From the IMG/VR virus record IMGVR_UViG_2703718775_000013: DNA of 64,000 bases; one strand, 5' to 3'. Source of the DNA: a virus. Lineage: Duplodnaviria; Heunggongvirae; Uroviricota; Caudoviricetes. Made by a program: the position numbers and the translations under genes. Below are positions 24,755 to 49,422 of the stretch, piece after piece (the stretch's first letter is position 1; each line of letters opens with the position of its first letter). The notes beneath the pieces are model-generated. The model did no database searches, was not told the DNA's origin, and saw nothing but the letters and a program-made list of their open reading frames with translations.

Positions 24755-25801
24755 TTAACCTATTGCTACTGGTTTTAACAAACCAGCATCAAGTAGCTTG
24801 CGAGTTAACCACTGCTGGCCTTTACCCGTTAATTGGGGCGTCAGCCGTATCTGGTAGCCATTTTCATCATCCAGCACCACTTCTTTCACCGTGAAATACC
24901 CGGCGTTAATGTACTGCTGGCGCGGTACGTTTTTGCGCGCACCAAAAGCCATGAGAATGCCGTTCTGGCGCAACCATGAGAAAAGGGCGTTTTGCTTAAG
25001 TCCAACGACCTTTGCAAAGTTCCCGATCAGGATTCCATTAGCCGCTGATACCCGGTCGGCAAAATCGACTTTAGGGGCTGCGGCCACCAGCTGTTGTTCC
25101 AACTGCATTTTCTGTTCTGCCAACTCGGCAGCCAGGCGTAGAGCTTCTGGTAATGTTTGGGGGATCGATGGGGTAGGGGAGTTTGCCTGCTGCAATTCTT
25201 CCAGTTTGTCGATCAGCGAACGGCGGACCGCTTTCGATTCGCGAGCAGCAACGCGCAGGGCTTGTTTGTATGTCATTACTATAACTACCTGATCCGCTCC
25301 ACCTTTTTTCTTATCCATAGGGGTTACGAAGATTTCGTAACCCTCCCCATCAAGCTCATCCTTAACTCTGGCAATGAAATCATTGTTGCGAACTGGTTTT
25401 TCGCTACATAATTTCCGTGCCTCATTGACCATCTTTAACAGTGTCAGGCTGTCGATTGTGTCTCCGGTGTTGGGGATAATATTCACGGCTGGTGCTGGCG
25501 TAGCTGACGTAACAGGTGCTGGTTTTTCAACATTCAAATTATTACCGGTCATTCTATGTGCCTCCTTTCTCATTTCTGCTGCCACTGTTGCGTAACGTAG
25601 ACGTCCTTGTTCAATCAAATAATCCCTGATCTCGGCTATCAGTAGCCTGTTGATCACAGCCTTATCTGTTCGGGTATAAAAACGCCTGGTTATCATGAAA
25701 TAGTTAGCAATTGCGCCGGGGATCTCCCGTGTCGGCATACAGGCAGTATGCAGGGCGATCGCTTCGGCTATGTCATTACGGGTGACGAGAGGTTTTTTCA
25801 T
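24755..25801 (-). CDS. ant: antirepressor Ant (ANT/KilAC C-terminal domain)
   Basis: 348 aa; C-terminal domain shared with KilA; start overlaps icd stop (ATGA). Confidence 0.75.
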   Translation of the reverse strand: MKKPLVTRNDIAEAIALHTACMPTREIPGAIANYFMITRRFYTRTDKAVINRLLIAEIRDYLIEQGRLRYATVAAEMRKEAHRMTGNNLNVEKPAPVTSATPAPAVNIIPNTGDTIDSLTLLKMVNEARKLCSEKPVRNNDFIARVKDELDGEGYEIFVTPMDKKKGGADQVVIVMTYKQALRVAARESKAVRRSLIDKLEELQQANSPTPSIPQTLPEALRLAAELAEQKMQLEQQLVAAAPKVDFADRVSAANGILIGNFAKVVGLKQNALFSWLRQNGILMAFGARKNVPRQQYINAGYFTVKEVVLDDENGYQIRLTPQLTGKGQQWLTRKLLDAGLLKPVAIG

Positions 25802-26019
25802 AAACCCCCCTGAACGTCGGCAGAGAAGGGGAGGCTCCAGTAACTAAGTGAATTGCGCGAGTTAGTTGAAAAACGGGCAGTAAAAATGCAGGGGCCATCA
25901 GGCAATTGAGAGCGTGCTTCGTCTTCTGTTGCAGCGATAACGAAGTGATAGTGGTGTTTTTTACAGGAATAGAAACGCCAGATGAATTCTTGGCGTGCGC
26001 AAGGATTGGCATTAACCAT
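25798..26019 (-). CDS. icd: Icd-like small protein, translationally coupled to ant
   Basis: 73-aa ORF ending in ATGA overlap with ant start; matches recalled P1 immI layout c4-icd-ant. Confidence 0.55.
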   Translation of the reverse strand: MVNANPCARQEFIWRFYSCKKHHYHFVIAATEDEARSQLPDGPCIFTARFSTNSRNSLSYWSLPFSADVQGGL

Positions 26020-26039
26020 AGTTACGGCCTCGTAAGTTG

Positions 26040-26300
26040 ATAAACAACCTGCGACCCGCTGCTAAACAGGTGGCAGGACGTGACGGGGTTAGCAGACTGG
26101 CACTTACGAAACCAGCAGGCCGAAGCCTCCCCATCACGCCCCACCATAATTCGGGCGTAACGTGGTTTACGGACACAAAAATACCGCAATATCGGAAATC
26201 TGCGGTTGTCCGCGTAAGTATTCAGGCTGCTAAACCCGGTCGCAGAATTTGCTACGACGGCGGAACTATAAGCCTGAACGATTAAAAGGTCAATATGATG
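26040..26300 (-). ncRNA. c4-like antisense RNA region of immI (boundaries approximate)
   Basis: Leader between the operator and icd contains CTGCTAAAC twice (26059, 26226) and the complementary GTTAGCAG (26089) on the same transcript, the kind of antisense/target pairs described for P1 c4. Confidence 0.3.
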
Positions 26301-26331
26301 CGAAAAGATAGCATTCGCGACTTAAAAATAC

Positions 26332-26348
26332 AAATTTATTAGAGCATT
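26332..26348. promoter_or_regulatory. C1 operator-like site at immI promoter (16/17 match)
   Basis: AAATTTATTAGAGCATT at the upstream end of the minus-strand immI leader. Confidence 0.65.
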
Positions 26349-26444
26349 GCTTGTTTAATAAATGCACAATTGGATCTAATAACCTCTTTTTTTTAAAGGC
26401 GAAAATATGTACCCTAAATGAGTTATAAGGCAGGTGAGGTTATA

Positions 26445-26576
26445 ATGAGAAAACTATTACTACCGTTATTATTTATGGCCGGGACTGTTAATGCAGCATC
26501 AAGCGTGAAGGAGATTTGTACCGATTATACGAAATACCTTGGGCACGTTTACGCCTTTGCGATCAATGACTATTAA
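26445..26576 (+). CDS. small secreted peptide precursor (43 aa, signal peptide, about 23-aa mature product)
   Basis: ATG at 26445 with GGTGAGG SD; MRKLLLPLLFMAGTVNA-ASSVKEICTDYTKYLGHVYAFAINDY; not in ORF track (below 60 aa). Confidence 0.45.
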   Translation: MRKLLLPLLFMAGTVNAASSVKEICTDYTKYLGHVYAFAINDY

Positions 26577-26597
26577 TCCATGCGTAGGAGTGGATTT

Positions 26598-26915
26598 ATG
26601 CTGATTCGTTTGTTTTTAGTGCTTTCCTTTTTAACATTTAATGTTTTTGCTGATGAAGTTGACTTTTCGAAGGTAGATTGCAATTCAGTGGAAACAAGAA
26701 AAGCTCTTATTGAAGAATATAACGAAATATTATCGTTATATGGAATAACAGTGGTTGATTCTTATAATCAAAAAACTATTCAGAAAGGAATAAATAAACT
26801 GGTTTGTTATGGGATTTACCAATATTCAGATGGCTCTTCGGAGTATGTTATTTATAAAGCATACCCAAATAGTCTTGGTGAATTGATTAGTGAGTTTAAA
26901 CCGATTAATGAGTGA
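26598..26915 (+). CDS. secreted hypothetical protein (signal peptide, two Cys)
   Basis: ATG at 26598 with AGGAG SD; MLIRLFLVLSFLTFNVFA-DEV...; GC about 30 percent. Confidence 0.6.
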   Translation: MLIRLFLVLSFLTFNVFADEVDFSKVDCNSVETRKALIEEYNEILSLYGITVVDSYNQKTIQKGINKLVCYGIYQYSDGSSEYVIYKAYPNSLGELISEFKPINE

Positions 26916-30077: not shown

Positions 30078-33000
30078 ATGGAAAGAAAAAACGCCAACAT
30101 TGACGATGTGATAAGGACGGTTGAAACCGCCAGCGCAAAAGAGCTGGAAGAGCTTGCAGGTATTCGGGAAGCTGTTGAAGATTTGAAAGGGGGGCGAGTT
30201 GCTACTGTTGATCCTGTCTCTCGCAGCGTGTCGGCATTAAATCGCACAATCGAAAATTCCCGGCCTGACTTTGTGGCCAAAGCGCCATCCGTAGACCCTA
30301 TTGTTGACGCAATGAAACGGCTTAATTTAGGGGACGTTTCTCGTGTAGTTCAGGAAGATGTTGCTCAACAGGAACAGCGGGCCAAATCAACCACACAAAA
30401 GGGTAAAAAACGACGCAGGAAGGCTATACCAGAGGATGTAAAGGCACAACGGACCGAAGCAGCCGAACACGCTCGCGAAATGTTCGGTCAAAAAGGCGGT
30501 GCGCAAAAAAGCCAAAACCAACGCGATGCGCGTGGTCGTTTTATTGGAAAGTCAGGGAGTAAGGCCGCAGCGGAAGATGCCCGTGCTGAACGAGCAGAAA
30601 AGGCCAGGCGAAAAGAGGATGATGAGCGTCTAAATGCTGAATCAGGTTTATTAAAAAAACTGTCAAAAGTAGCTGAAGGCATAGGTAACCCTTCAGAGAC
30701 TCGTGCCGTCGATGCGTTAGGTTACGCCGTTGCTGGTCCATTGTGGGCAGCAGGGAAGGAGCTTGGCGGGATATCAAAAGAAGTTGGTGGATCGCTTAAT
30801 GGTGCCAGAAAGTCTATTGCCGATGTGATTCGTGGCAATGACGATAACAGCCGTAGAAAAGGTTTTTTTAGGCGTAAATCGCAAAATAGTGCCGATGTCG
30901 TTCAGGTTAACACCCAAAAACGGACGGTTCAGGAACTTCAGGAGCAGACCAGCGAAATTAAAGAGGGCAATGACAAGATTCTCCGTGCCCTTGATCAGAT
31001 AGCCAAAAACACCGGTAAAAAGAAGGGCGGCTTGCTGTCCAAACTATTTAGCCTGTTAGGGAAGGGGGCCGGTGGCGTCGCGTCGTTGTTAATGGGGCGT
31101 GGCATGCTGAAAAAAGCTGGAGCACTCGCTTTTGGCGCTCTGGGGGCAAAGAAACTTGTAGGAATGCTACGCGGTGGTGGCAAGAAGACTCTCGCTCATG
31201 AAGGCGGAGATTTGGCTGCCCGGGCAGCAGGTAAACTTGGATTAAAGGCAGTTGGTAAAGGGGCGTTACGCGCAATTCCCCTAGTCGGCACAGTGGCTGG
31301 AGGTATTTATGGTGCGGTAACCGGTTGGAATGATACAGAAGCGCAACGTCGAGCGTTTGGGCTTAAATCAGGACAAGATCCATCATTCCAGCAAAAAGCC
31401 GCTTATACGTTAGCTAATGTTCTTGATATGGGGGGACTGGTATCTGGTATTAGCAGCGCCATTGGTGAGGTTCTCAAATCACTTGGATTTGAGGATATCG
31501 GCAATATGTTGCAATCATTTTCGACGGAAAGTATTGCCCAGGCCATTGATAGTGGGATTACCAACTTAGAAACATATATTTCTAACCTTGGCGACACCAT
31601 TTCTACCAAGTTCGATGATTACACAGCAAAGATTGGTGATGCTGTTTCAGCATGGTTTAGCGATACATCTAATAAGCTGCTTGAAAAGCTGGATGCCATC
31701 AAAGACTTCTTTACTGTCGATAACCTGAAACAGGTTTTCAGTGATGCAATTGATAGTGCAATTGATTTCATTAAGAACCCAGGGAAACACATTAAAGAGG
31801 CGGCTGGTAATATTTGGGATGGGGTTAAAAATTTACCCGGTAAAGCATTAGATGCAGCGGTTGATGCCGTTAAAAATACCCCTGCGGCAATGATTGTATC
31901 AAAAATACCCAATCCGATCGGCGAGGCTAATGCGAAAGAAATCACTCCAGAGTTAAAAGCTCCGGTTAATAGCCACCAGGAGACATCTGATTCTAAAACT
32001 GAATCCGATGCCAAACAGACTAATATTGTTACCCGCGTGATAAATGCGGCACTGGACACGGCGAAAGATAGCAATAAAACAGTTAAAGAAACTGCTAATC
32101 AGATTATCAATGCAAATGCCGTAGAAACGGGCAATAGCGCGTTGCAGAAAATTGATAAAGCTATTGGTCAAAATAGCTCGTCATCATCGTCGCTTAATAC
32201 CACTGGCACTAGGAATGACATTCAGAAAGCTGCGGATACCTACAACAATGGCAACTTGGATGTAAAAGTCGGAAGTCTTGGCGCTGAAGGTAAGGCAAAT
32301 CTCGATAAGTTGGCTCCGTATTTTGCTGAACTAGAGAATAAATATAGCCTTCCTGAAGGTACTCTTTACGCGATCGCTGCAACTGAATCTGGTGGTGATC
32401 CTAACGCAAAATCTACGCTTACAAGATCACCAAATGGAAAGCTAAGTGGTGGCGCTCTCGGAATGTTCCAGTTTACGAGCGTTGCTCGTGAGGAAACTGG
32501 ATTATCCCGGGAAGATTCTTTTAATCCGGAAAAATCGGCAGAAGCTGCGGCTCTTCTCATGAGCAAGTATCTGAAGCAAGCCAATGGAGACTTAAACGAG
32601 GCCATCACTGCATATAACGCTGGGTTTGGCACTATTAATAAGTGGAAAAAAGGCACAGGTGACTTATCGAAAGAAAACCGTGAGTACGCGATCAAGGTCA
32701 ATACTCATCGTGCTCGCTATTTAGGTGGTGAAATCTATACACCTGGGGCAGGAGCACAGGGTGGGGCGCAATTTGGAGTGAGGGGACCACTGCCTGATAA
32801 CGCCGTTATCGATCAGTCTACTGGTCTGGCGTTTACCCCTGGTGATAGCCCGTTTGAGAAAGGCGGTCTGGTAGACAAAATCGGCAATGCTGTTGGCGTT
32901 AACGATCTGGTCAACAAATTCATGAATGGCCGGGGGATGCGTCGGGAAGTCGTCCAGGGAACCCTCGAAGAACGTGCACGAGGAAGGGGAACCGCAACGG

Positions 33001-33500
33001 CAGCTGGCAATGTGTATGTTGATACACCTATGCCAGTTGAAGAGGCACGTCCGGTGGCCAACAACTCAAGTTACTTTGACCAGCTCGGCGCACAAATGGG
33101 GATTGATGGACTGTATGACAAACTCATTAATGCCCGGGGAATGCGCTCAAATAATTCTCCTCAACCAGACTCCACGCCCCAGGTGACGACTGCCGCCAAC
33201 GATTTGCAGCAACCAACCGGTCGTATGCAGATAGACGGGCAGGTTATTAGTGACCTTGGCGGTTCTGGTGCCAAGCCGACAATGCAGTTGGCTGATAATA
33301 CCGTTTCACTTGATGGTGAAACGAAGCGGCTGTTTGCGCAGATGACCTCATTGCTTGCCAGGATTGAAGAGCACACCAAAGACTCGGCGAAAGGCCAGGG
33401 AACTGTCGTAAAGGTCAGCACGCCTCAACCGGGCGTTATGCGCACGGTGCCACTGTCAATTGATGATCCGTTGATGAATGACTACGCGAGAGTTGATTGA
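30078..33500 (+). CDS. sit: tape-measure-like protein with lytic transglycosylase (SLT) domain, P1 Sit-like
   Basis: 1140 aa; coiled/Gly-rich N-terminal part; SLT motif region ATESGGDPNA...GGALGMFQFT...AYNAGFG. Confidence 0.85.
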   Translation: MERKNANIDDVIRTVETASAKELEELAGIREAVEDLKGGRVATVDPVSRSVSALNRTIENSRPDFVAKAPSVDPIVDAMKRLNLGDVSRVVQEDVAQQEQRAKSTTQKGKKRRRKAIPEDVKAQRTEAAEHAREMFGQKGGAQKSQNQRDARGRFIGKSGSKAAAEDARAERAEKARRKEDDERLNAESGLLKKLSKVAEGIGNPSETRAVDALGYAVAGPLWAAGKELGGISKEVGGSLNGARKSIADVIRGNDDNSRRKGFFRRKSQNSADVVQVNTQKRTVQELQEQTSEIKEGNDKILRALDQIAKNTGKKKGGLLSKLFSLLGKGAGGVASLLMGRGMLKKAGALAFGALGAKKLVGMLRGGGKKTLAHEGGDLAARAAGKLGLKAVGKGALRAIPLVGTVAGGIYGAVTGWNDTEAQRRAFGLKSGQDPSFQQKAAYTLANVLDMGGLVSGISSAIGEVLKSLGFEDIGNMLQSFSTESIAQAIDSGITNLETYISNLGDTISTKFDDYTAKIGDAVSAWFSDTSNKLLEKLDAIKDFFTVDNLKQVFSDAIDSAIDFIKNPGKHIKEAAGNIWDGVKNLPGKALDAAVDAVKNTPAAMIVSKIPNPIGEANAKEITPELKAPVNSHQETSDSKTESDAKQTNIVTRVINAALDTAKDSNKTVKETANQIINANAVETGNSALQKIDKAIGQNSSSSSSLNTTGTRNDIQKAADTYNNGNLDVKVGSLGAEGKANLDKLAPYFAELENKYSLPEGTLYAIAATESGGDPNAKSTLTRSPNGKLSGGALGMFQFTSVAREETGLSREDSFNPEKSAEAAALLMSKYLKQANGDLNEAITAYNAGFGTINKWKKGTGDLSKENREYAIKVNTHRARYLGGEIYTPGAGAQGGAQFGVRGPLPDNAVIDQSTGLAFTPGDSPFEKGGLVDKIGNAVGVNDLVNKFMNGRGMRREVVQGTLEERARGRGTATAAGNVYVDTPMPVEEARPVANNSSYFDQLGAQMGIDGLYDKLINARGMRSNNSPQPDSTPQVTTAANDLQQPTGRMQIDGQVISDLGGSGAKPTMQLADNTVSLDGETKRLFAQMTSLLARIEEHTKDSAKGQGTVVKVSTPQPGVMRTVPLSIDDPLMNDYARVD

Positions 33501-42805: not shown

Positions 42806-44725
42806 ATGGAACAGTTCAATATCAATAAAGGGGTGACGATCAAGCCTGGGCTTGACGTGCTTCCCCCGCCAGTGACTGATGATGAATATCGCGCATTAAT
42901 GGCCGGTGAGGACCGCTATCTGATGACGGAATCCAACACCCTGGAGGAAATCGAGGCTACGTTCTTCTATGACACGCCGATCCACTGGTGTGCTACGGAT
43001 TTACTGGAGGCGATTAGTTCTACTCGTTTGCAGCTACACCGGACCATGCAGGCATTTGTCCGGGCATTGAACCAGAAGCTGAATGGTACCGGAATCTCTG
43101 CGGGGAGTGATAAAACGGGGGACGTGGCCCAGAACGGTGCACGCGCGATCGGCGGGGCTGAAATTGGCCGGGCACGTAACGTTAACGGGCTGCCGGTCCT
43201 GCCAGCCATTATTCCGCTCAGTGATGGTCAGACTATCAGCATTCTGTTTCATAGCCCGACAGCGGAAAACCGGATCACCAATAGCGATACGCTGATTGCT
43301 TTCCAGTTCTTACTGAATAAAAAAGACGTTACTCATACCGTTGCTCCGATGAGTGGACGTGATATGACGCTGGCGCAGGTCACCATGAAACTTGCCAACC
43401 TTGCAGAGAAAAACTCGGCAAAATTCCAGCGTGCGCAGAAGAAGAAAAAAGCCCTGGTTGATGAAATAACCCAACTACAGGCTGACAGTGACCAGAAAGA
43501 GGATGCCATGAGCGACCTCGCGGATCAGGTGGCAGCGGTAGAAGGGCAGAAGGTAGATCTGGAGCAGAAAATTAACGCTGTTGCATCGGAAGCGGATTCT
43601 CTTTATGAAGAGAATGAGCGTTTGCAGACGGAGATTGATCAGCTCAATCGAACTGGTGGGCGCGAAACCATTGCTCCTGCGGGGATGACTGGTAGACACT
43701 CTCGCGCGATGACGGATCGCCTTGCAAGTATCAAAAATCGTATGCATATGAACGGGGAAGTGACGCTCAGTAATGGTGCATCAATGAAGCAATTCATTGA
43801 GGACGGTGAAGGGTATATCCAGTTAACCGATTCGGATGGCAGCGTGTACATGATCAAGGCTAAATCCATACAGGGTGTGGACATGGCAGATGCGATCGGC
43901 AAGCTGTTTAAAGCCTATAAAGCGGGTAATGTATCGGAATATCTGGTCCAACCAGAAGAACATAAACCGGAAAACGTCGAACCTGAACCAGCGGAGGATA
44001 CCGGTAGCTCTTCGCCTGAACCAGAAGTCTCTGTAGGTGCATATCGATATGCCCTGCAAATGCGTCCGGCGGCCCCTGGCGCAATACCTGAAGGTAATAA
44101 AGCGATTCTGCCGCGCCCTGATGAAGGTGACCCGTATTATGAATATGCACGCTACGGCATTGCTACTTACGATACCCCGCTTTCTGATCAGCAAATGAGT
44201 GAGTACGACCTGAAGTTATTGCCTCGCGAGGATTCTTTCGACTTCCTGGCGAAGACACTTACTAATGGTCCGTTTGGCAAATATGCACAAAAAGCTCTGG
44301 AGCTGGCCACCAGCTCACCAGACGAGTTCCGCGTAATGCTGAAGACTCAGTTTCAAAAAACTTTCCCCAATATTGCGTTTCCGGGGGGCGCTGGCACCGA
44401 GAAAATGGTGCAGAGCATGATCAATGCATTGCAGGCCGAAGTCGGTGAGATTACTCAGCCAGAACCGGCCCCGGCACAGCCTGATGAAACGGTTAGCGAA
44501 GCAGATGCAGAGGCTAATAAAGCCATTGAATATCTCAATAACGTGATGGATATGCAAAGCACTGACATGGCGGAGATCCGTAACGCCCGGGGCAATGTCC
44601 GGGAAGCGATTGCAGCCCTTCAGGCTGCCGGACGTTTTGAGGAAAACGAAGAGCTGGTTAACGGTGCTGCTCGCCACCTGGCTGATCTGCTGGTAGCAAT
44701 CCAGAAAGCGGGGGTAGCGGCATGA
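42806..44725 (+). CDS. darA: antirestriction head protein DarA
   Basis: 639-aa ORF in hdf-darA-ddrA order; size matches recalled P1 DarA. Confidence 0.75.
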   Translation: MEQFNINKGVTIKPGLDVLPPPVTDDEYRALMAGEDRYLMTESNTLEEIEATFFYDTPIHWCATDLLEAISSTRLQLHRTMQAFVRALNQKLNGTGISAGSDKTGDVAQNGARAIGGAEIGRARNVNGLPVLPAIIPLSDGQTISILFHSPTAENRITNSDTLIAFQFLLNKKDVTHTVAPMSGRDMTLAQVTMKLANLAEKNSAKFQRAQKKKKALVDEITQLQADSDQKEDAMSDLADQVAAVEGQKVDLEQKINAVASEADSLYEENERLQTEIDQLNRTGGRETIAPAGMTGRHSRAMTDRLASIKNRMHMNGEVTLSNGASMKQFIEDGEGYIQLTDSDGSVYMIKAKSIQGVDMADAIGKLFKAYKAGNVSEYLVQPEEHKPENVEPEPAEDTGSSSPEPEVSVGAYRYALQMRPAAPGAIPEGNKAILPRPDEGDPYYEYARYGIATYDTPLSDQQMSEYDLKLLPREDSFDFLAKTLTNGPFGKYAQKALELATSSPDEFRVMLKTQFQKTFPNIAFPGGAGTEKMVQSMINALQAEVGEITQPEPAPAQPDETVSEADAEANKAIEYLNNVMDMQSTDMAEIRNARGNVREAIAALQAAGRFEENEELVNGAARHLADLLVAIQKAGVAA

Positions 44726-45087
44726 CACTATCAGCTATTGAGTTAATGGACCTCAGCGATAAGTTGGATGCTCTGATGTCCAAAGCGGCTACCGCGAGTG
44801 GCATGGAGTTGCTGGATATCAGCGATGAAATTGACCAGATCATGCAACAGATGGGGTACGGCGCGTCCGGCGGCAGTAGTGGCGAGGAAAAACAACCTTC
44901 GGTACATGATGGTGTGCCAAAACTGGTTGCTGATTTCCTGGCTGATAAATTCGTCGATCAGAGCACTGATGCATTTATCGGTACGTTACAGGACTTGAGT
45001 CAATATGTTGGCACATACATCGACCTGGACCAGGTTAAACAGCACACGGCGGCATGGATAGCCGCCAACATTAAAGAGGCAGCGTGA
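44722..45087 (+). CDS. ddrA: DdrA-like protein
   Basis: 121-aa ORF overlapping darA stop; synteny-based. Confidence 0.55.
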   Translation: MTLSAIELMDLSDKLDALMSKAATASGMELLDISDEIDQIMQQMGYGASGGSSGEEKQPSVHDGVPKLVADFLADKFVDQSTDAFIGTLQDLSQYVGTYIDLDQVKQHTAAWIAANIKEAA

Positions 45088-45089
45088 CA

Positions 45090-46425
45090 TCCTCCACGCC
45101 CCGAAGGGCGTGGATTCCTGCTACGTTCAGGCTGTCGCCTGAATCATTTTGGTGGGTTCCTGCTTCAACGGGCGGCCTGACTGCACCATCCCTCCACAGG
45201 CAAGTACGGCGTGCCCCGCCGCTAAAATGTTACGAGCGCCGTTTACATCGGCGTTCGCTGTATATCCACATACCTGGCATCTGAATTTACTTTGTGACAG
45301 GCGATTTTCTTTCGCTGTATGACCACAGCACGCGCAACGCTGGCTTGTGTACGCTGGCGGAACAGCAAGCACCTGACCGCCACGCCAGAGCTGCTTGTAC
45401 TCAAGCTGGCGGCGCATTTCATACCAGCCCTGATCCAGTATCGAACGGTTTAAACCTGATTTTGCCCGGACATTGCGACCCGGATGACTTATCGTTCCCG
45501 CCGCTGACTTTGACATGTATTTAACCTTCAAATCCTCAATGACAATCATTGCGTGGTTTTTGCTGACGGTCGTTGTGACTTTGTGAAGGTAGTCCCTGCG
45601 GATATTTGCGATACGGGAATGCAGTCGCTGTATTTTGCGTTTCTGCTTCTGCCAGTTGTTGCTGAATTTGACCTTGCGGCTTAACTGTCGCTGAAGTCTC
45701 GCCAGCTTCTTCTGGTTTTTCTGAAAACTATTTACAGGTTCAAAGACTGTGCCATCTGACAGCGTGGCGAGTTTAGCCACGCCAGCATCCAGTCCGACCA
45801 TTGATGCTGAAGGGTGAACAGGAGTGGATACCTCTCTTTCTGTCTGAATACTGATGTACCACTTACCGCAGGACTGGCTGACAGTAACATTTTTCACAAT
45901 ACCCGTGACCTGACGGCTATTCCGGTAGCGCATCCAGCCAAGTTTCGGCAGAAAAATACGGCTGTTTTCCTGATCGAGCTTAACACCCTGCGGGTAGCGG
46001 AATGCATCATTCTGTCCCCGCTTTTTGAATCGGGGAAAAGCTGCCCGATTCTGGAAGAAGTTTTTGTAAGCCCGCTCAAGGTCTTTCAGTGACTGTTGCA
46101 ATGGCTGTGAGGGAGAATCTTTAAGCCATTCGGTTTCAGTGTCTTTTTTCCACTCAACCAACCAGGAAGCCATTTTCGTGTAAGGGATGTATTTTTTACC
46201 GGCCTCATGATTCTCATTCTGAAGCGCCAGAGCACGGTTGAAAACGAAACGACAAGCTCCGGCAAAGCGCCTCATTTGACGCTCCTGTTGACCATCTGGT
46301 TTTAACCGGAATTTGAATGACACCTGTTGTTTCATGTCACTATTTTAAGCAAAAATAGCCGGGAGGAAAACTGTGCCTTATATCCCCACTATGAGGAGCG
46401 TAGGGGGCGGCACATTGGATAAGGC
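45090..46425 (-). mobile_element. IS200/IS605-family insertion sequence, tnpB-only (IS1341-like), inserted between ddrA and ddrB
   Basis: Single TnpB gene, subterminal hairpin CCACGCCCCGAAGGGCGTGG at 45096-45115 just past tnpB 3' end, TTAC (reverse complement of GTAA at 46426-46429) abutting the proposed left end; no tnpA. Boundaries approximate. Confidence 0.6.
45127..46335 (-). CDS. tnpB: TnpB (OrfB) RuvC-like RNA-guided nuclease of IS200/IS605 family
   Basis: 402 aa; C-terminal zinc ribbon [11 protein letters not shown]...[18 protein letters not shown]; typical OrfB_IS605 architecture. Confidence 0.85.
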
Positions 46426-46434
46426 GTAACAGGG

Positions 46435-49422
46435 ATGAGCTTAAGCGATCAGGTGGTAATGGCCACCAGCATAGAAACGCTGATCGAGCTGCTAAAGAAC
46501 CTGCCCGATTATGGGCGGGTTTCGTATGTGGTGACAGCGAAGGGAGACGAGGTAAAAACAGCGTTTGATATCGTCGATGCCTCAGCTATTTTGGTATCCA
46601 ATACTCTGGATGGGAAAATTAATCCTGACTATCCCCAGGAACTTCAGCCGCGCGACCGGACCCGCGCATCCAGCCTTCTTCAGGTTAACCAGATATCCAA
46701 AGATTTGCGGCCTGCTCAGCTTACCGATTCCGGATTATCCAGCCATGGCGCACCGATAATTGGTGAGGACAATGCAGTTGAGTCAGGTAATGGACGTACC
46801 ATGGGGATCATTAAAGCCTATCAGGACGGTAATGCGGATCGGTATCGGGAGTACCTGATTGAACATGCGACCGAATTCGGCATACGTACTGAAAAGGTTG
46901 AATCAATGACGGCTCCGGTACTGGTGCGCCGCCGGTTAACGAAGGTTGACCGCGTTCAGTTTGCCAAGGACTCAAATATTTCTGATCTTCAGGAAATGGC
47001 AGCCAGTGAAAAGGCTTTTGTTGATGCCGACAGCATAACACCGGCGATGATGGCGCTGTTTAATCCGTCAGAAAGCGGAGATCTGCTTAGCCGCAGTAAT
47101 GACGCGTTTATTCGCGGATTTATGACGCAAGTTGGTGCCACACAGGCGGCTGGCCTTGTAACTGAAGATGGGCGACCAACACGGCAACTTGTAGACCGTA
47201 TACAAAACGCGATCTTTGCCAAGGCATATAAGGATGCGCGCCTGGTAAGGATGGTTGCAGAAGAACCTGATCCGGATATGCGTAATGTTCTGACGGCGCT
47301 TAATGCGGCAGCCAATGATTTTGTCCAGATGCAGGCTTTATCAGGAGAAGCGCACAAGCAGGCTGTGACAACTATTGTTGATGGCATTGAGACAGCGGAT
47401 AGCCTCGATAAAAAGGCGCTGGCGGCATTGAAAGATGCGGTAGACCTGGTAAGGCAATCGAAGGAGTCAGGCCAGCATATTACCGATGTTATTGCTCAGG
47501 GGGATATGTTCAGCGAAATGGCCCCGGAAGTGAAAGCACTCGCGTTGTTCATCGTCGCGAATAACCGTAGCGCGAAGCGTATGGCCACCGCCTTTAAGTT
47601 GATGGCTCAACGTATCAATGATGAGTTACAGCACCAGGGCCAGGCGCTGGGGGATATGTTTGGCGGCGGCGATGTGTCGTTACAGGATATCCTTCGCCAG
47701 GTATCTCAGGAACTGGAAAACGAAGGTATGCAAGGGATATCCGGCGGTCTTTTCGAGTCAGCTTCCGGCGGTAGTTACAACGGTGTTGCTCCATATACCA
47801 GTTTGCTATTACATCGAGCATCCGGCATCAAAGACATTATTCATCTGATCAGGCTGCTTTCCCGTAAAGATCCCCAGGATGAACAGCTTGTACAAGTGCT
47901 TGCGCATTTTGTTCGAATGCCTGTTGCCGACGTGAAAAAATGGTGCCGATTATTCGGTATCAGCAATTCGTTACTTCGCGGCTTGTTAAATCACGCATCC
48001 TCCCTTGGGCGCGATGGCTTTGACGAGATAGCGCAGGCGATAAAAAACGGAGATATGCCACCAGCTATTGACTGGTTTTCCATTCGCCCAACCAGGGTGA
48101 AAGCATTCCTTAGCGCGGCGCATTCGGCATCACCATTGGCAGAAATGGTTCAGAGGTTGTCGCTCATATTCACAGACCATACCGCGTTGGGTGATCTGAC
48201 TCTGGACGAGATGAAAGAAGCCTCCATTCAGTGGGCCGATCAACAAAATGAGGTTAACTCAGACTTCTTGCCAGCATTCAGGAAGGCCGTTAGTAAAGCG
48301 GATGATGCCCGTGGAATTCTGAAGGCATTTAAGGCATTGCAAAGTCGTGTTAATAAACATGTCGGTGATATCGATGGGGTAACGGCGGAAGGCCGGGATA
48401 TCCTTAAAGAGCACGGCATAACGCCAGAGTTTATTGATGAGATCAGGACTGATATGCAGCGTGAGGTCGTATCGTCCCTGCAAATCGTAGCCAGAGCGTT
48501 GGCGGATGCTAATCCGAAGAGTGCGGCCATTGTTAACCGGGTTATTGGTGATATTGAAGCATCGGAGGGCATGGGGGCGCTGAAACTCTTCCTTTCGCGA
48601 GCGTTTAATCCTAACGGCAATATTCTCCCTGGCATTATTGGTGAGGCTAAAAAGTATGTCAGTGAAGAAGAACTTGAGCAGCTTGACCAACTACTTAAGC
48701 GATTCTCATATAACCCGCAGACACGCTGGCAAATGAATCAGCGAAGTATGGGTTCGGTCCACGAGAAAGTGTTATCTGCCATGAACAGTGCGATCGCAAA
48801 CTCATCCGTATCTGAAGAAAAAGCTCTTGAGTGGGCCGACTCTTTTATCACAGAAGAAGTGGAAGAAGCCCGCGCTGGACAGAATGGTGGGATAGACCTG
48901 CGCAAGGAACTTGCTGATATTTATCGCCTGACCGGCGGGAAAATATCGACCTTATCAAAGGTAGTTCACCACCAGGGAAGGGCATATGCAAATCTAAATG
49001 GTGTTGTTGCTGTCAATTTGAACGATAAAAATGCAAGTGCACTGTGGCACGAGCTGGGTCATCATCTTGAGTACAGTAACCCTGGTTTGTTAGAGAAAGC
49101 CCGGTCATTCCTGAAGGCCAATGTTGAAGGGGATAAGCCATCTTTCGTTAATATCGGTGGGCGTGGCAAGCCTGAATGGTGCTTCAGATCTCGATTGAGT
49201 AATATTTATATGGCGAAGGTATACCCGCCAGCCTCAGTAAGTAACACCGGGAAAATTCGGCAGAAATCACCGACTATTTCCAAAACGTCAGCAACGGAAG
49301 TATTCTCTATGGCTCTTCAGTTGTATCATGACAAAGAGGCCGCTGCCGCATCACTGATGAATGGTGACGGATTGCTGGAACTGTTATTAGGTGTGGCAAA
49401 GGAGCTAAATAATGCAGATTAA
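46435..49422 (+). CDS. ddrB: DdrB-like large antirestriction-associated head protein
   Basis: 995-aa ORF continuing the dar operon after the IS insertion; synteny and size. Confidence 0.6.
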   Translation: MSLSDQVVMATSIETLIELLKNLPDYGRVSYVVTAKGDEVKTAFDIVDASAILVSNTLDGKINPDYPQELQPRDRTRASSLLQVNQISKDLRPAQLTDSGLSSHGAPIIGEDNAVESGNGRTMGIIKAYQDGNADRYREYLIEHATEFGIRTEKVESMTAPVLVRRRLTKVDRVQFAKDSNISDLQEMAASEKAFVDADSITPAMMALFNPSESGDLLSRSNDAFIRGFMTQVGATQAAGLVTEDGRPTRQLVDRIQNAIFAKAYKDARLVRMVAEEPDPDMRNVLTALNAAANDFVQMQALSGEAHKQAVTTIVDGIETADSLDKKALAALKDAVDLVRQSKESGQHITDVIAQGDMFSEMAPEVKALALFIVANNRSAKRMATAFKLMAQRINDELQHQGQALGDMFGGGDVSLQDILRQVSQELENEGMQGISGGLFESASGGSYNGVAPYTSLLLHRASGIKDIIHLIRLLSRKDPQDEQLVQVLAHFVRMPVADVKKWCRLFGISNSLLRGLLNHASSLGRDGFDEIAQAIKNGDMPPAIDWFSIRPTRVKAFLSAAHSASPLAEMVQRLSLIFTDHTALGDLTLDEMKEASIQWADQQNEVNSDFLPAFRKAVSKADDARGILKAFKALQSRVNKHVGDIDGVTAEGRDILKEHGITPEFIDEIRTDMQREVVSSLQIVARALADANPKSAAIVNRVIGDIEASEGMGALKLFLSRAFNPNGNILPGIIGEAKKYVSEEELEQLDQLLKRFSYNPQTRWQMNQRSMGSVHEKVLSAMNSAIANSSVSEEKALEWADSFITEEVEEARAGQNGGIDLRKELADIYRLTGGKISTLSKVVHHQGRAYANLNGVVAVNLNDKNASALWHELGHHLEYSNPGLLEKARSFLKANVEGDKPSFVNIGGRGKPEWCFRSRLSNIYMAKVYPPASVSNTGKIRQKSPTISKTSATEVFSMALQLYHDKEAAAASLMNGDGLLELLLGVAKELNNAD

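Follow-up and report, generated by a model that had tools for sequence, protein, structure and literature searches.

An IS609-like tnpB element in the ddrA stop codon of a P1-like phage-plasmid carries a predicted guide matching insertion-free relatives

TnpB is an RNA-guided nuclease that cuts DNA in which a target motif lies next to a match to its guide (Karvelis 2021, PMC8612924), and it promotes the retention and spread of its own element (Meers 2023 preprint, 10.1101/2023.03.14.532601). In plasmid populations, an IS605-family TnpB was shown experimentally to spread its element by gene drive and to protect F plasmids from rivals that lack the insertion (Mears 2025, bioRxiv 10.1101/2025.02.20.638934). 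The plasmids in that study were engineered ColE1, pSC101, and F constructs; natural guides were not identified, and phages were not mentioned (10.1101/2025.02.20.638934). Here we describe a tnpB element that lies between ddrA and ddrB, two genes of the dar antirestriction operon, in IMG/VR virus record IMGVR_UViG_2703718775_000013. We refer to the whole 64,000-nucleotide (nt) stretch of this record as the window, and all positions count from its first letter. The window is a P1-like phage-plasmid.

Our best explanation, held with slightly more confidence than doubt, is that this is an immobile tnpB and omega-RNA element sitting in the ddrA stop codon, that its guide is directed against insertion-free relatives of P1, and that it acts by RNA-guided homing or exclusion with ddrB not silenced. 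The element in itself is routine, being an annotated IS609/insQ insertion found in a minority of P1-like phage-plasmids. The insertion is also already known: it is annotated as insQ between DdrA and DdrB in phages RCS47 and SJ46 and as “IS609-like” in plasmid pSvP1. Venturini 2019 (PMC6906374) reported that the P1-like plasmid pJIE250-3 carries IS609, gave TTAT and TCAA as its cleavage sites, and listed pSvP1 25,544-26,881 as an “IS609-like sequence” (PMC6906374). Because the left-end sequence in the window matches pSvP1 (NZ_MN510446) from position 25,544, this is the same insertion that those authors had seen. The SJ46 paper and one survey of P1-like plasmids do not mention the element, and among the literature we examined, only Venturini 2019 does. 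What appears to go beyond routine annotation is that features recognized by the transposase TnpA have apparently been lost, that the guide can be read from the sequence, and that it matches most insertion-free P1 relatives.

To set the ends of the element, we aligned the window with insertion-free phage P1 (L001). The element is a tnpA-less, IS609-like (IS609/insQ type) member of the IS200/IS605 family, lies on the minus strand, so that its top strand is the window minus strand, and is inserted 3' of TTAT. The empty site in P1 reads GGCAGC^ATAAGGCG, where the caret marks the break at which the window carries the insert. Across the whole junction, P1 reads GAGGCAGC^ATAAGGCGTAAC, and the window reads GAGGCAGC followed by GTGACATCC...CACATTGG and then ATAAGGCGTAAC. 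On the element strand, the P1 site GGCAGC^ATAAGG thus becomes TTAT, element, GCTGCC, with no target duplication. The main features are as follows.

45084..46418, minus strand: the whole element, 1335 bp, with its left end at 46418 and its right end at 45084, from the P1 alignment
46419..46422, minus strand: the target tetranucleotide and inferred target-adjacent motif (TAM), read as TTAT along the element and as ATAA on the plus strand, where it overlaps the P1 ddrA stop TAA
45127..46335, minus strand: the tnpB coding sequence, 402 amino acids, with RuvC residues D183/E267/D363 and CxxC motifs at residues 334 and 353
45084..45230, minus strand: the predicted omega-RNA scaffold, ~147 nt, overlapping the tnpB 3' end and the right end and marked by covariation
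45068..45083, minus strand: the 16-nt guide template, giving guide GCUGCCUCUUUAAUGU, antisense to the final 16 nt of the ddrA coding sequence and directly 3' of the right end

A sequence-only reading made before this comparison had recognized a tnpB-only IS200/IS605-family element between ddrA and ddrB, and both the Pfam domains of the protein and the comparison with P1 agree. Its proposal to define the ends against a dar operon free of the insertion also worked, as the P1 alignment fixed them at 45084 and 46418. The extent that it gave the element, 45088-46434, is instead the intergenic gap. Likewise, the TTAC that it placed against the left end (46426..46429) starts 7 nt outside the element, and the tetranucleotide that abuts the end is TTAT. 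The insertion point falls within the last codon and the stop codon of ddrA. The element supplies G45084, which keeps the final Ala (GCG), and a new TGA stop at 45085..45087 (plus strand), so DdrA stays at 121 amino acids.

In an alignment of the last 240 nt of the element from 31 relatives (A5), the consensus structure has 49 pairs, 16 of them with compensatory changes, and 96.9% of cells are paired. None of 500 shuffles reached the observed values, and sliding the partners by 1-3 columns reduced pairing to 39-51% of cells. The structure includes a long-range stem (45230..45225 with 45092..45087), and its helix 9, with compensatory changes in five of nine pairs, is the hairpin at the right end of the element. 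Judged by this covariation, the omega-RNA is structurally conserved. Rfam returned only sub-threshold matches (RAGATH-18, HgcC, and sot0042), on the same strand as the scaffold; we take these families to overlap TnpB-associated RNAs. The sequence-only reading had anticipated a guide RNA from the right end, beside the ddrA 3' end, and the covariation across the tnpB 3' end and the right end bears it out.

We infer that this RNA carries a 16-nt guide copied from the DNA just past the right end. The corresponding sequence, GCTGCCTCTTTAATGT, has no second exact match in the window, and in insertion-free relatives it directly follows TTAT. A copy of the guide with one mismatch, GCCGCCTCTTTAATGT, occurs at 31789..31804 (minus strand) within a 1140-amino-acid open reading frame (ORF; 30078..33500), where it is preceded by ACCA. 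Self-targeting at 31789..31804 is not expected, as no TTAY is adjacent. A terminator-like hairpin at 45047..45067 (minus strand), TGGCGGCTATCCATGCCGCCG with a U-rich tail, starts exactly after the 16-nt guide; it may set the 3' end of the guide RNA, or its position may be coincidence.

The protein that would use this guide is apparently intact and is predicted to be an RNA-guided nuclease. It matches the Pfam families HTH_OrfB_IS605, OrfB_IS605, and Cas12f1-like_TNB (E 1.6e-16 to 1.5e-34) and aligns over its full length with ISDra2 TnpB (E 9e-52). In that pairwise alignment, D183/E267/D363 fall on the ISDra2 catalytic residues D191/E278/D361. Together with the two CxxC motifs, these matches confirm the 402-residue TnpB with RuvC-like core and zinc ribbon that had been read from the sequence. 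We rejected a TldR-like dead nuclease on the intact catalytic triad. The frame of tnpB is open in 17 of 17 occupied loci, representing 12 distinct sequences, and the RuvC triad is present in 16 of the 17; the last is a copy with an in-frame deletion, which we did not re-align. This copy (L075 4801-6120, NZ_CP100532) has lost 15 bp of tnpB and encodes 397 amino acids. Between the window and SJ46, the ratio of non-synonymous to synonymous substitution rates (dN/dS) of tnpB is 0.21. A tblastn search of the whole 64-kb window with TnpA proteins from related loci found no tnpA homologue (the best match was short, E 0.004), in line with the earlier call that the element lacks tnpA. A tnpB-only derivative is a recognized state within the IS200/IS605 family.

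If the protein and the RNA act together, TnpB with its omega-RNA would cut TTAT-GCTGCCTCTTTAATGT. This combination of TTAT and guide match exists only at the uninterrupted ddrA-ddrB junctions of P1 relatives without the element. The carrier would be immune, as its TTAT and its target sequence lie on opposite sides of the element. An insertion-free P1-like genome, whether co-resident or incoming, would be cut and could then either be repaired from the carrier copy, which would amount to homing and a gene drive, or be lost, which would amount to exclusion of a rival. Potential targets are common: among 80 IMG/VR loci encoding DdrA, 12 were occupied and 68 empty, and 50 of the 68 insertion-free loci had a perfect match to TTAT plus 20 nt. 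In the other 18, the 20 nt next to the TAM contained differences, which in 13 loci fell at positions 1-3.

Immobility, the other half of our explanation, was assessed by comparing both ends of the element with those of its family. Three further features are needed here.

45084..45087, minus strand: the right-end cleavage tetranucleotide, TCAC, which is TCAA in 33 of 33 relatives
45093..45114, minus strand: the right-end subterminal hairpin, a 9-bp stem UCCACGCCC-UUCG-GGGCGUGGA, which is also the last stem-loop of the omega-RNA
46336..46418, minus strand: the left end (LE), which is non-canonical, with element positions 12-31 (46407..46388) replaced

At the right, 33 relatives down to 65% identity end in ...GGAGGATGTCAA followed by unrelated flanking sequence, whereas the window, RCS47, SJ46, and all other P1-like copies end in ...GTCAC. 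All 17 complete P1-like copies carry TCAC. The right hairpin and the GGAAT guide are still present in the window. The subterminal hairpin 3' of tnpB that had been noted from the sequence is real, with its 9-bp stem at 45093..45114. In SJ46, the loop of this hairpin is inverted (L072 3795-3815, corresponding to window 45094-45113), reading CGAA rather than TTCG along the element strand, and the stem has lost one pair.

The left end has changed far more. In the family, it reads TTAY^CC.GTGCGCCG-TAAA(A/G)-CCCCGTCCTTCAGGGCGGGG-ATATAAGG, and in the window TTAT^CCAATGTGCCG-CCCCCTACGCTCCTCATAGT-GGGGATATAAGG. What has been replaced includes the TAAAA guide tetranucleotide of the family and its CCCCGTCC/GGGCGGGG hairpin: where relatives have GTAAAA and CCCCGTCC..GGGCGGGG, the window has GCCCCC and another hairpin that is weaker, and a manual count gives 17 differences in 32 nt. 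The remnants in the window are this weaker hairpin (46405..46400 with 46389..46384) and a covarying outer stem (46414..46409 with 46377..46372). Between the window and SJ46, the variant itself differs at 3 of 31 positions. In IS608, four nucleotides 5' of the hairpin act as the guide that recognizes the cleavage site (He 2011, PMC3201880). Among 19 family loci, the target abutting the left end was TTAT in 15 and TTAC in 4, and guide and target covaried in 18 of 19, AAAA with TTAT in 15 and AAAG with TTAC in 3 (the exception being L007). On this covariation, the IS608 rule extends to the IS609-like family. The left-end regions in this comparison include L003 1990-2060, L006 2460-2520, L009, and L022.

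With its left guide and hairpin replaced and with TCAC in place of TCAA, the element is probably no longer mobilizable by TnpA. It would therefore be inherited with the phage-plasmid or moved by homologous recombination rather than by transposition. The variant left end is confined to 75 plasmid records that are P1-like in size and type, most of those listed being ~86-147 kb, and 78 of 80 records that match it are non-mobilizable. Every copy of the variant sits at the same ddrA-ddrB junction, which accords with the inferred loss of TnpA mobility.

We next consider how the insertion is distributed among relatives. Over the 3-kb stretch around it, identity is 99.3% with phages RCS47 and vB_EcoM-813R1 and 96.9% with SJ46; in P1, P7, and other relatives, the match is to the flanks alone and not to the insertion. 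The gene is thus absent from this site in most P1-like plasmids and comes with the marks of an insertion, TTAT and the right-end hairpin: among 469 plasmid records with the junction flanks, 356 are uninterrupted and ~75-87 occupied (16-19%). Occupancy in IMG/VR is 15%. The 17 complete occupied P1-like loci have identical junctions, TCAC, and the variant left end, and their 12 distinct element sequences are at most 3.9% apart. This suggests one shared insertion that has been maintained in P1-like genomes.

Recombination has taken place around the element, and these data do not distinguish homing from ordinary exchange. When loci are ordered by flank distance, occupied and empty ones are intermixed, and the ddrB genes of an occupied and an empty locus (L075 and L084) differ at only 8 of 2382 nt. 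The element in the window differs from that of RCS47 at 1 of 1335 nt (99.9% identity), but the flanks differ at 1-1.6% and begin to diverge 418 nt left of the element and 169 nt right of it. Between the window and SJ46, the element is 3.9% diverged and the flanks ~1.7%. A search for recent spread, in which the element would be younger than its flanks, thus had a mixed outcome, with RCS47 in favor and SJ46 showing the opposite, and is confounded by gene conversion with insQ. The P1-like element copies are themselves mosaic (window, L072, L074, and L076 compared with chromosomal L003, L004, and L008), with blocks at element positions 113-533 and 824-1058 that alternately match and differ from chromosomal insQ alleles. 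This pattern indicates that gene conversion occurs between plasmid and chromosomal insQ copies.

Several points weigh against RNA-guided homing or exclusion. The expression of TnpB and its omega-RNA and cleavage by them are predictions from sequence, and the TAM is deduced from where insertions lie. How TCAC and the variant left end would affect TnpA is read across from IS608 biochemistry. A simple promoter scan found no promoter for tnpB. The mosaic flanks are equally compatible with ordinary recombination among P1-like plasmids, and gene conversion with chromosomal copies could keep the tnpB frame open without selection in the phage, which weakens the argument from selection. Finally, insertion-free relatives show no escape signature, as variation in the target is not above background: across 67 aligned distinct sequences, 33-42% of 16-nt segments were at least as variable, and we rejected the idea of escape variants in the target. 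For the 3-nt seed, 8-12% of segments in the 67 distinct sequences were at least as variable.

Many of these same points would fit an element that is simply an inert passenger, an old stranded insertion sequence whose TnpB is silent or irrelevant and which persists since the site is neutral and excision impossible. We regard this as possible, though not probable. Both ends look degraded, the scan gave no tnpB promoter, nearly all E. coli chromosomes keep a similar insQ beside a tnpA pseudogene, allele blocks shared with chromosomal copies mean that gene conversion could explain the open frame, and target variation in insertion-free relatives is not in excess. A silent relic sits less easily with a tnpB that has kept its frame in all 17 loci and all 12 distinct sequences, with its triad in 16 of 17 and a dN/dS of ~0.2, or with an omega-RNA whose pairing is kept in the window copy. 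Moreover, the left end, which TnpA alone needs, is far more diverged than tnpB.

The sequence-only reading had proposed that the insertion may be polar, lowering or abolishing ddrB expression and so changing the antirestriction proteins packed in the virion. Three genes of the operon bear on this.

42806..44725, plus strand: darA, 639 amino acids, the upstream dar gene, with DarA_N and DarA_C domains
44722..45087, plus strand: ddrA, 121 amino acids, unchanged in length, its stop codon now from the element
46435..49422, plus strand: ddrB, 995 amino acids, intact, with a ddrB-ParB domain and a start 16 nt beyond the left end of the element

The operon keeps the hdf-darA-ddrA-ddrB order of P1, is 97-99% identical in DNA to those of P1, P7, and RCS47, and its Dar proteins have the Pfam domains DarA_N, DarA_C, and ddrB-ParB. 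The ddrA-ddrB spacing has grown from 12 nt in P1 to 1347 nt in the window, so any translational coupling is lost. In addition, tnpB transcription is convergent with the operon, and there are two weak plus-strand terminator-like sites (45125..45144 and 45701..45716). The number of terminator-like sites, however, is 4 compared with 1.9 +/- 1.4 in shuffled sequence, and neither promoter nor terminator counts from the scan exceed the shuffled expectation. The ddrB start and ribosome-binding region are untouched, with 16 nt between the left end and the ATG, and every occupied locus whose sequence extends to the end of ddrB has all 995 codons. The dN/dS of ddrB is 0.057 in occupied loci compared with 0.085 in empty ones, a test that is limited by recombination between occupied and empty backbones. 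An intact ddrB under strong purifying selection argues against a strongly polar effect. A weak sigma-70-like promoter faces ddrB at 46317..46346 (plus strand; ATGACA, an 18-nt spacer, and TATTTT) and could contribute to its transcription. Phages with the insertion (RCS47, SJ46, and vB_EcoM-813R1) have phage records of their own. Overall, the element does not seem to silence ddrB; the proposed polar effect finds no support in loci where ddrB is intact whenever enough sequence is available, and we consider it unlikely.

It is about as improbable, in our estimate, that the element is still mobile as a tnpB-only derivative that excises or transposes when a cognate TnpA is provided in trans. Such movement has evidently occurred in the family, as tnpB-only relatives with canonical ends lie at several sites (L005, L006, L009, L016, L029, and L073), and the window copy retains an intact right-end hairpin and GAAT guide and a variant left end that can still fold. 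Yet every copy with that left end is at the ddrA-ddrB junction, the AAAA guide that would pair with TTAT is missing, all copies have TCAC where 33 of 33 relatives have TCAA, and the E. coli chromosomal tnpA genes in the loci read are pseudogenes. Least probable by far is a domesticated regulator, either TnpB as a nuclease-dead, RNA-guided repressor of the TldR type or a read-through RNA antisense to ddrA: the guide, like any transcript that reads through, is antisense to the 3' end of ddrA, and phage-encoded TldR proteins have been reported (10.1101/2025.07.22.666180), but the RuvC triad and zinc-binding motifs are intact, the protein is full length, and with no TAM beside the guide match in the carrier, the complex should not bind its own DNA.

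Returning to RNA-guided homing or exclusion, a bolder version is that the element has ceased to be a transposon and is now a fixed TnpB and omega-RNA cassette, exploited by P1-like phage-plasmids or exploiting them, that serves as both RNA-guided weapon and gene drive and in a lysogen cuts co-resident or incoming P1 relatives at the open ddrA-ddrB junction (TTAT-GCTGCCTCTTTAATGT). This is a tentative proposal that we think could well be wrong. If it were true, P1 relatives would be converted to carriers or an incompatible rival eliminated, and the locus would show, in nature and independently of TnpA, how TnpB can mediate competition between phages. Either way, it is a natural test case in which guide and target can be read from the sequence, with a perfect target in about three quarters of the sampled insertion-free relatives, and P1 genetics would make homing and exclusion experiments simple. 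A conserved tnpB and omega-RNA beside degraded TnpA recognition sites would also offer a clean example of TnpB persistence without transposition. Annotators should not treat the insertion as a knockout of the dar operon.

The wider family places the element in context. It has 95% DNA identity to E. coli chromosomal insQ over element positions 100-1334, and such ~95% copies occur in ~92% of complete E. coli genomes (5015/5426), for example beside ydcO and yedK. In the loci read, the E. coli chromosomal copies keep a canonical left end, and their divergent tnpA is a pseudogene; an intact tnpA of 138-147 amino acids, divergent from tnpB, occurs in relatives from Serratia, Morganella, Klebsiella indica, and Photorhabdus. 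Relatives that are tnpB-only and share window element positions 32-1334 occur at several other sites. One of them (L005 2470-3804, NZ_LC511659) is a second, independent IS609-type tnpB-only site in P1-like plasmids, between lysozyme and head-processing genes; its ends are canonical (left TTAT^CCGGTGCGCCGTAAAA..., right ...GTCAA), and it is the site given for pJIE250-3 in Venturini 2019 (PMC6906374). In some P1/D6-like plasmids of E. fergusonii and E. albertii (H151-H153, H164, and H165), the junction matched on the ddrA side only (query 1-353 or 1-295). This fits a report that ddrB is absent from most D6-group phage-plasmids (bioRxiv 10.1101/2025.09.12.675607).

The closest described systems each share part of this arrangement. 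The insQ of RCS47 and SJ46, at the same junctions, and the IS609-like sequence of pSvP1 are the same insertion. The IS609/insQ (ydcM) element of E. coli has the same right end and omega-RNA region; unlike the chromosomal copies, the window copy is without tnpA, has its left hairpin and guide replaced, and has TCAC for TCAA. Like IS608 of Helicobacter pylori, the element is inserted 3' of a tetranucleotide; its family has a TCAA-type right site ~10 nt 3' of the right hairpin, which is TCAC in the window copy, and its relatives read the target with a 4-nt guide 5' of the left hairpin. It differs from IS608 in that the target is TTAT rather than TTAC, the tnpA of full-length relatives is divergent from tnpB, and the window copy has no left guide tetranucleotide. 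The TAM of ISDra2 is TTGAT, in place of which the window element, whose activity is predicted, has an inferred TAM of TTAT. As in ISDra2, the scaffold shares sequence with the tnpB 3' end and the right end, and flanking DNA would supply the guide (Karvelis 2021, PMC8612924).

In expected behavior only, the element resembles phage homing endonuclease genes, which cut the gene-free allele and are then copied by repair or exclude the rival. The window TnpB would be guided by RNA, whereas theirs is protein guidance, and the two are not homologous. The nearest parallel in behavior is the system of Mears 2025, in which a plasmid-borne TnpB lies in a conserved backbone region, as here, where the guide should likewise cut the insertion-free version of the same plasmid family. 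By contrast with that system, the replicon in the window is a phage-plasmid, and the element is apparently independent of TnpA.

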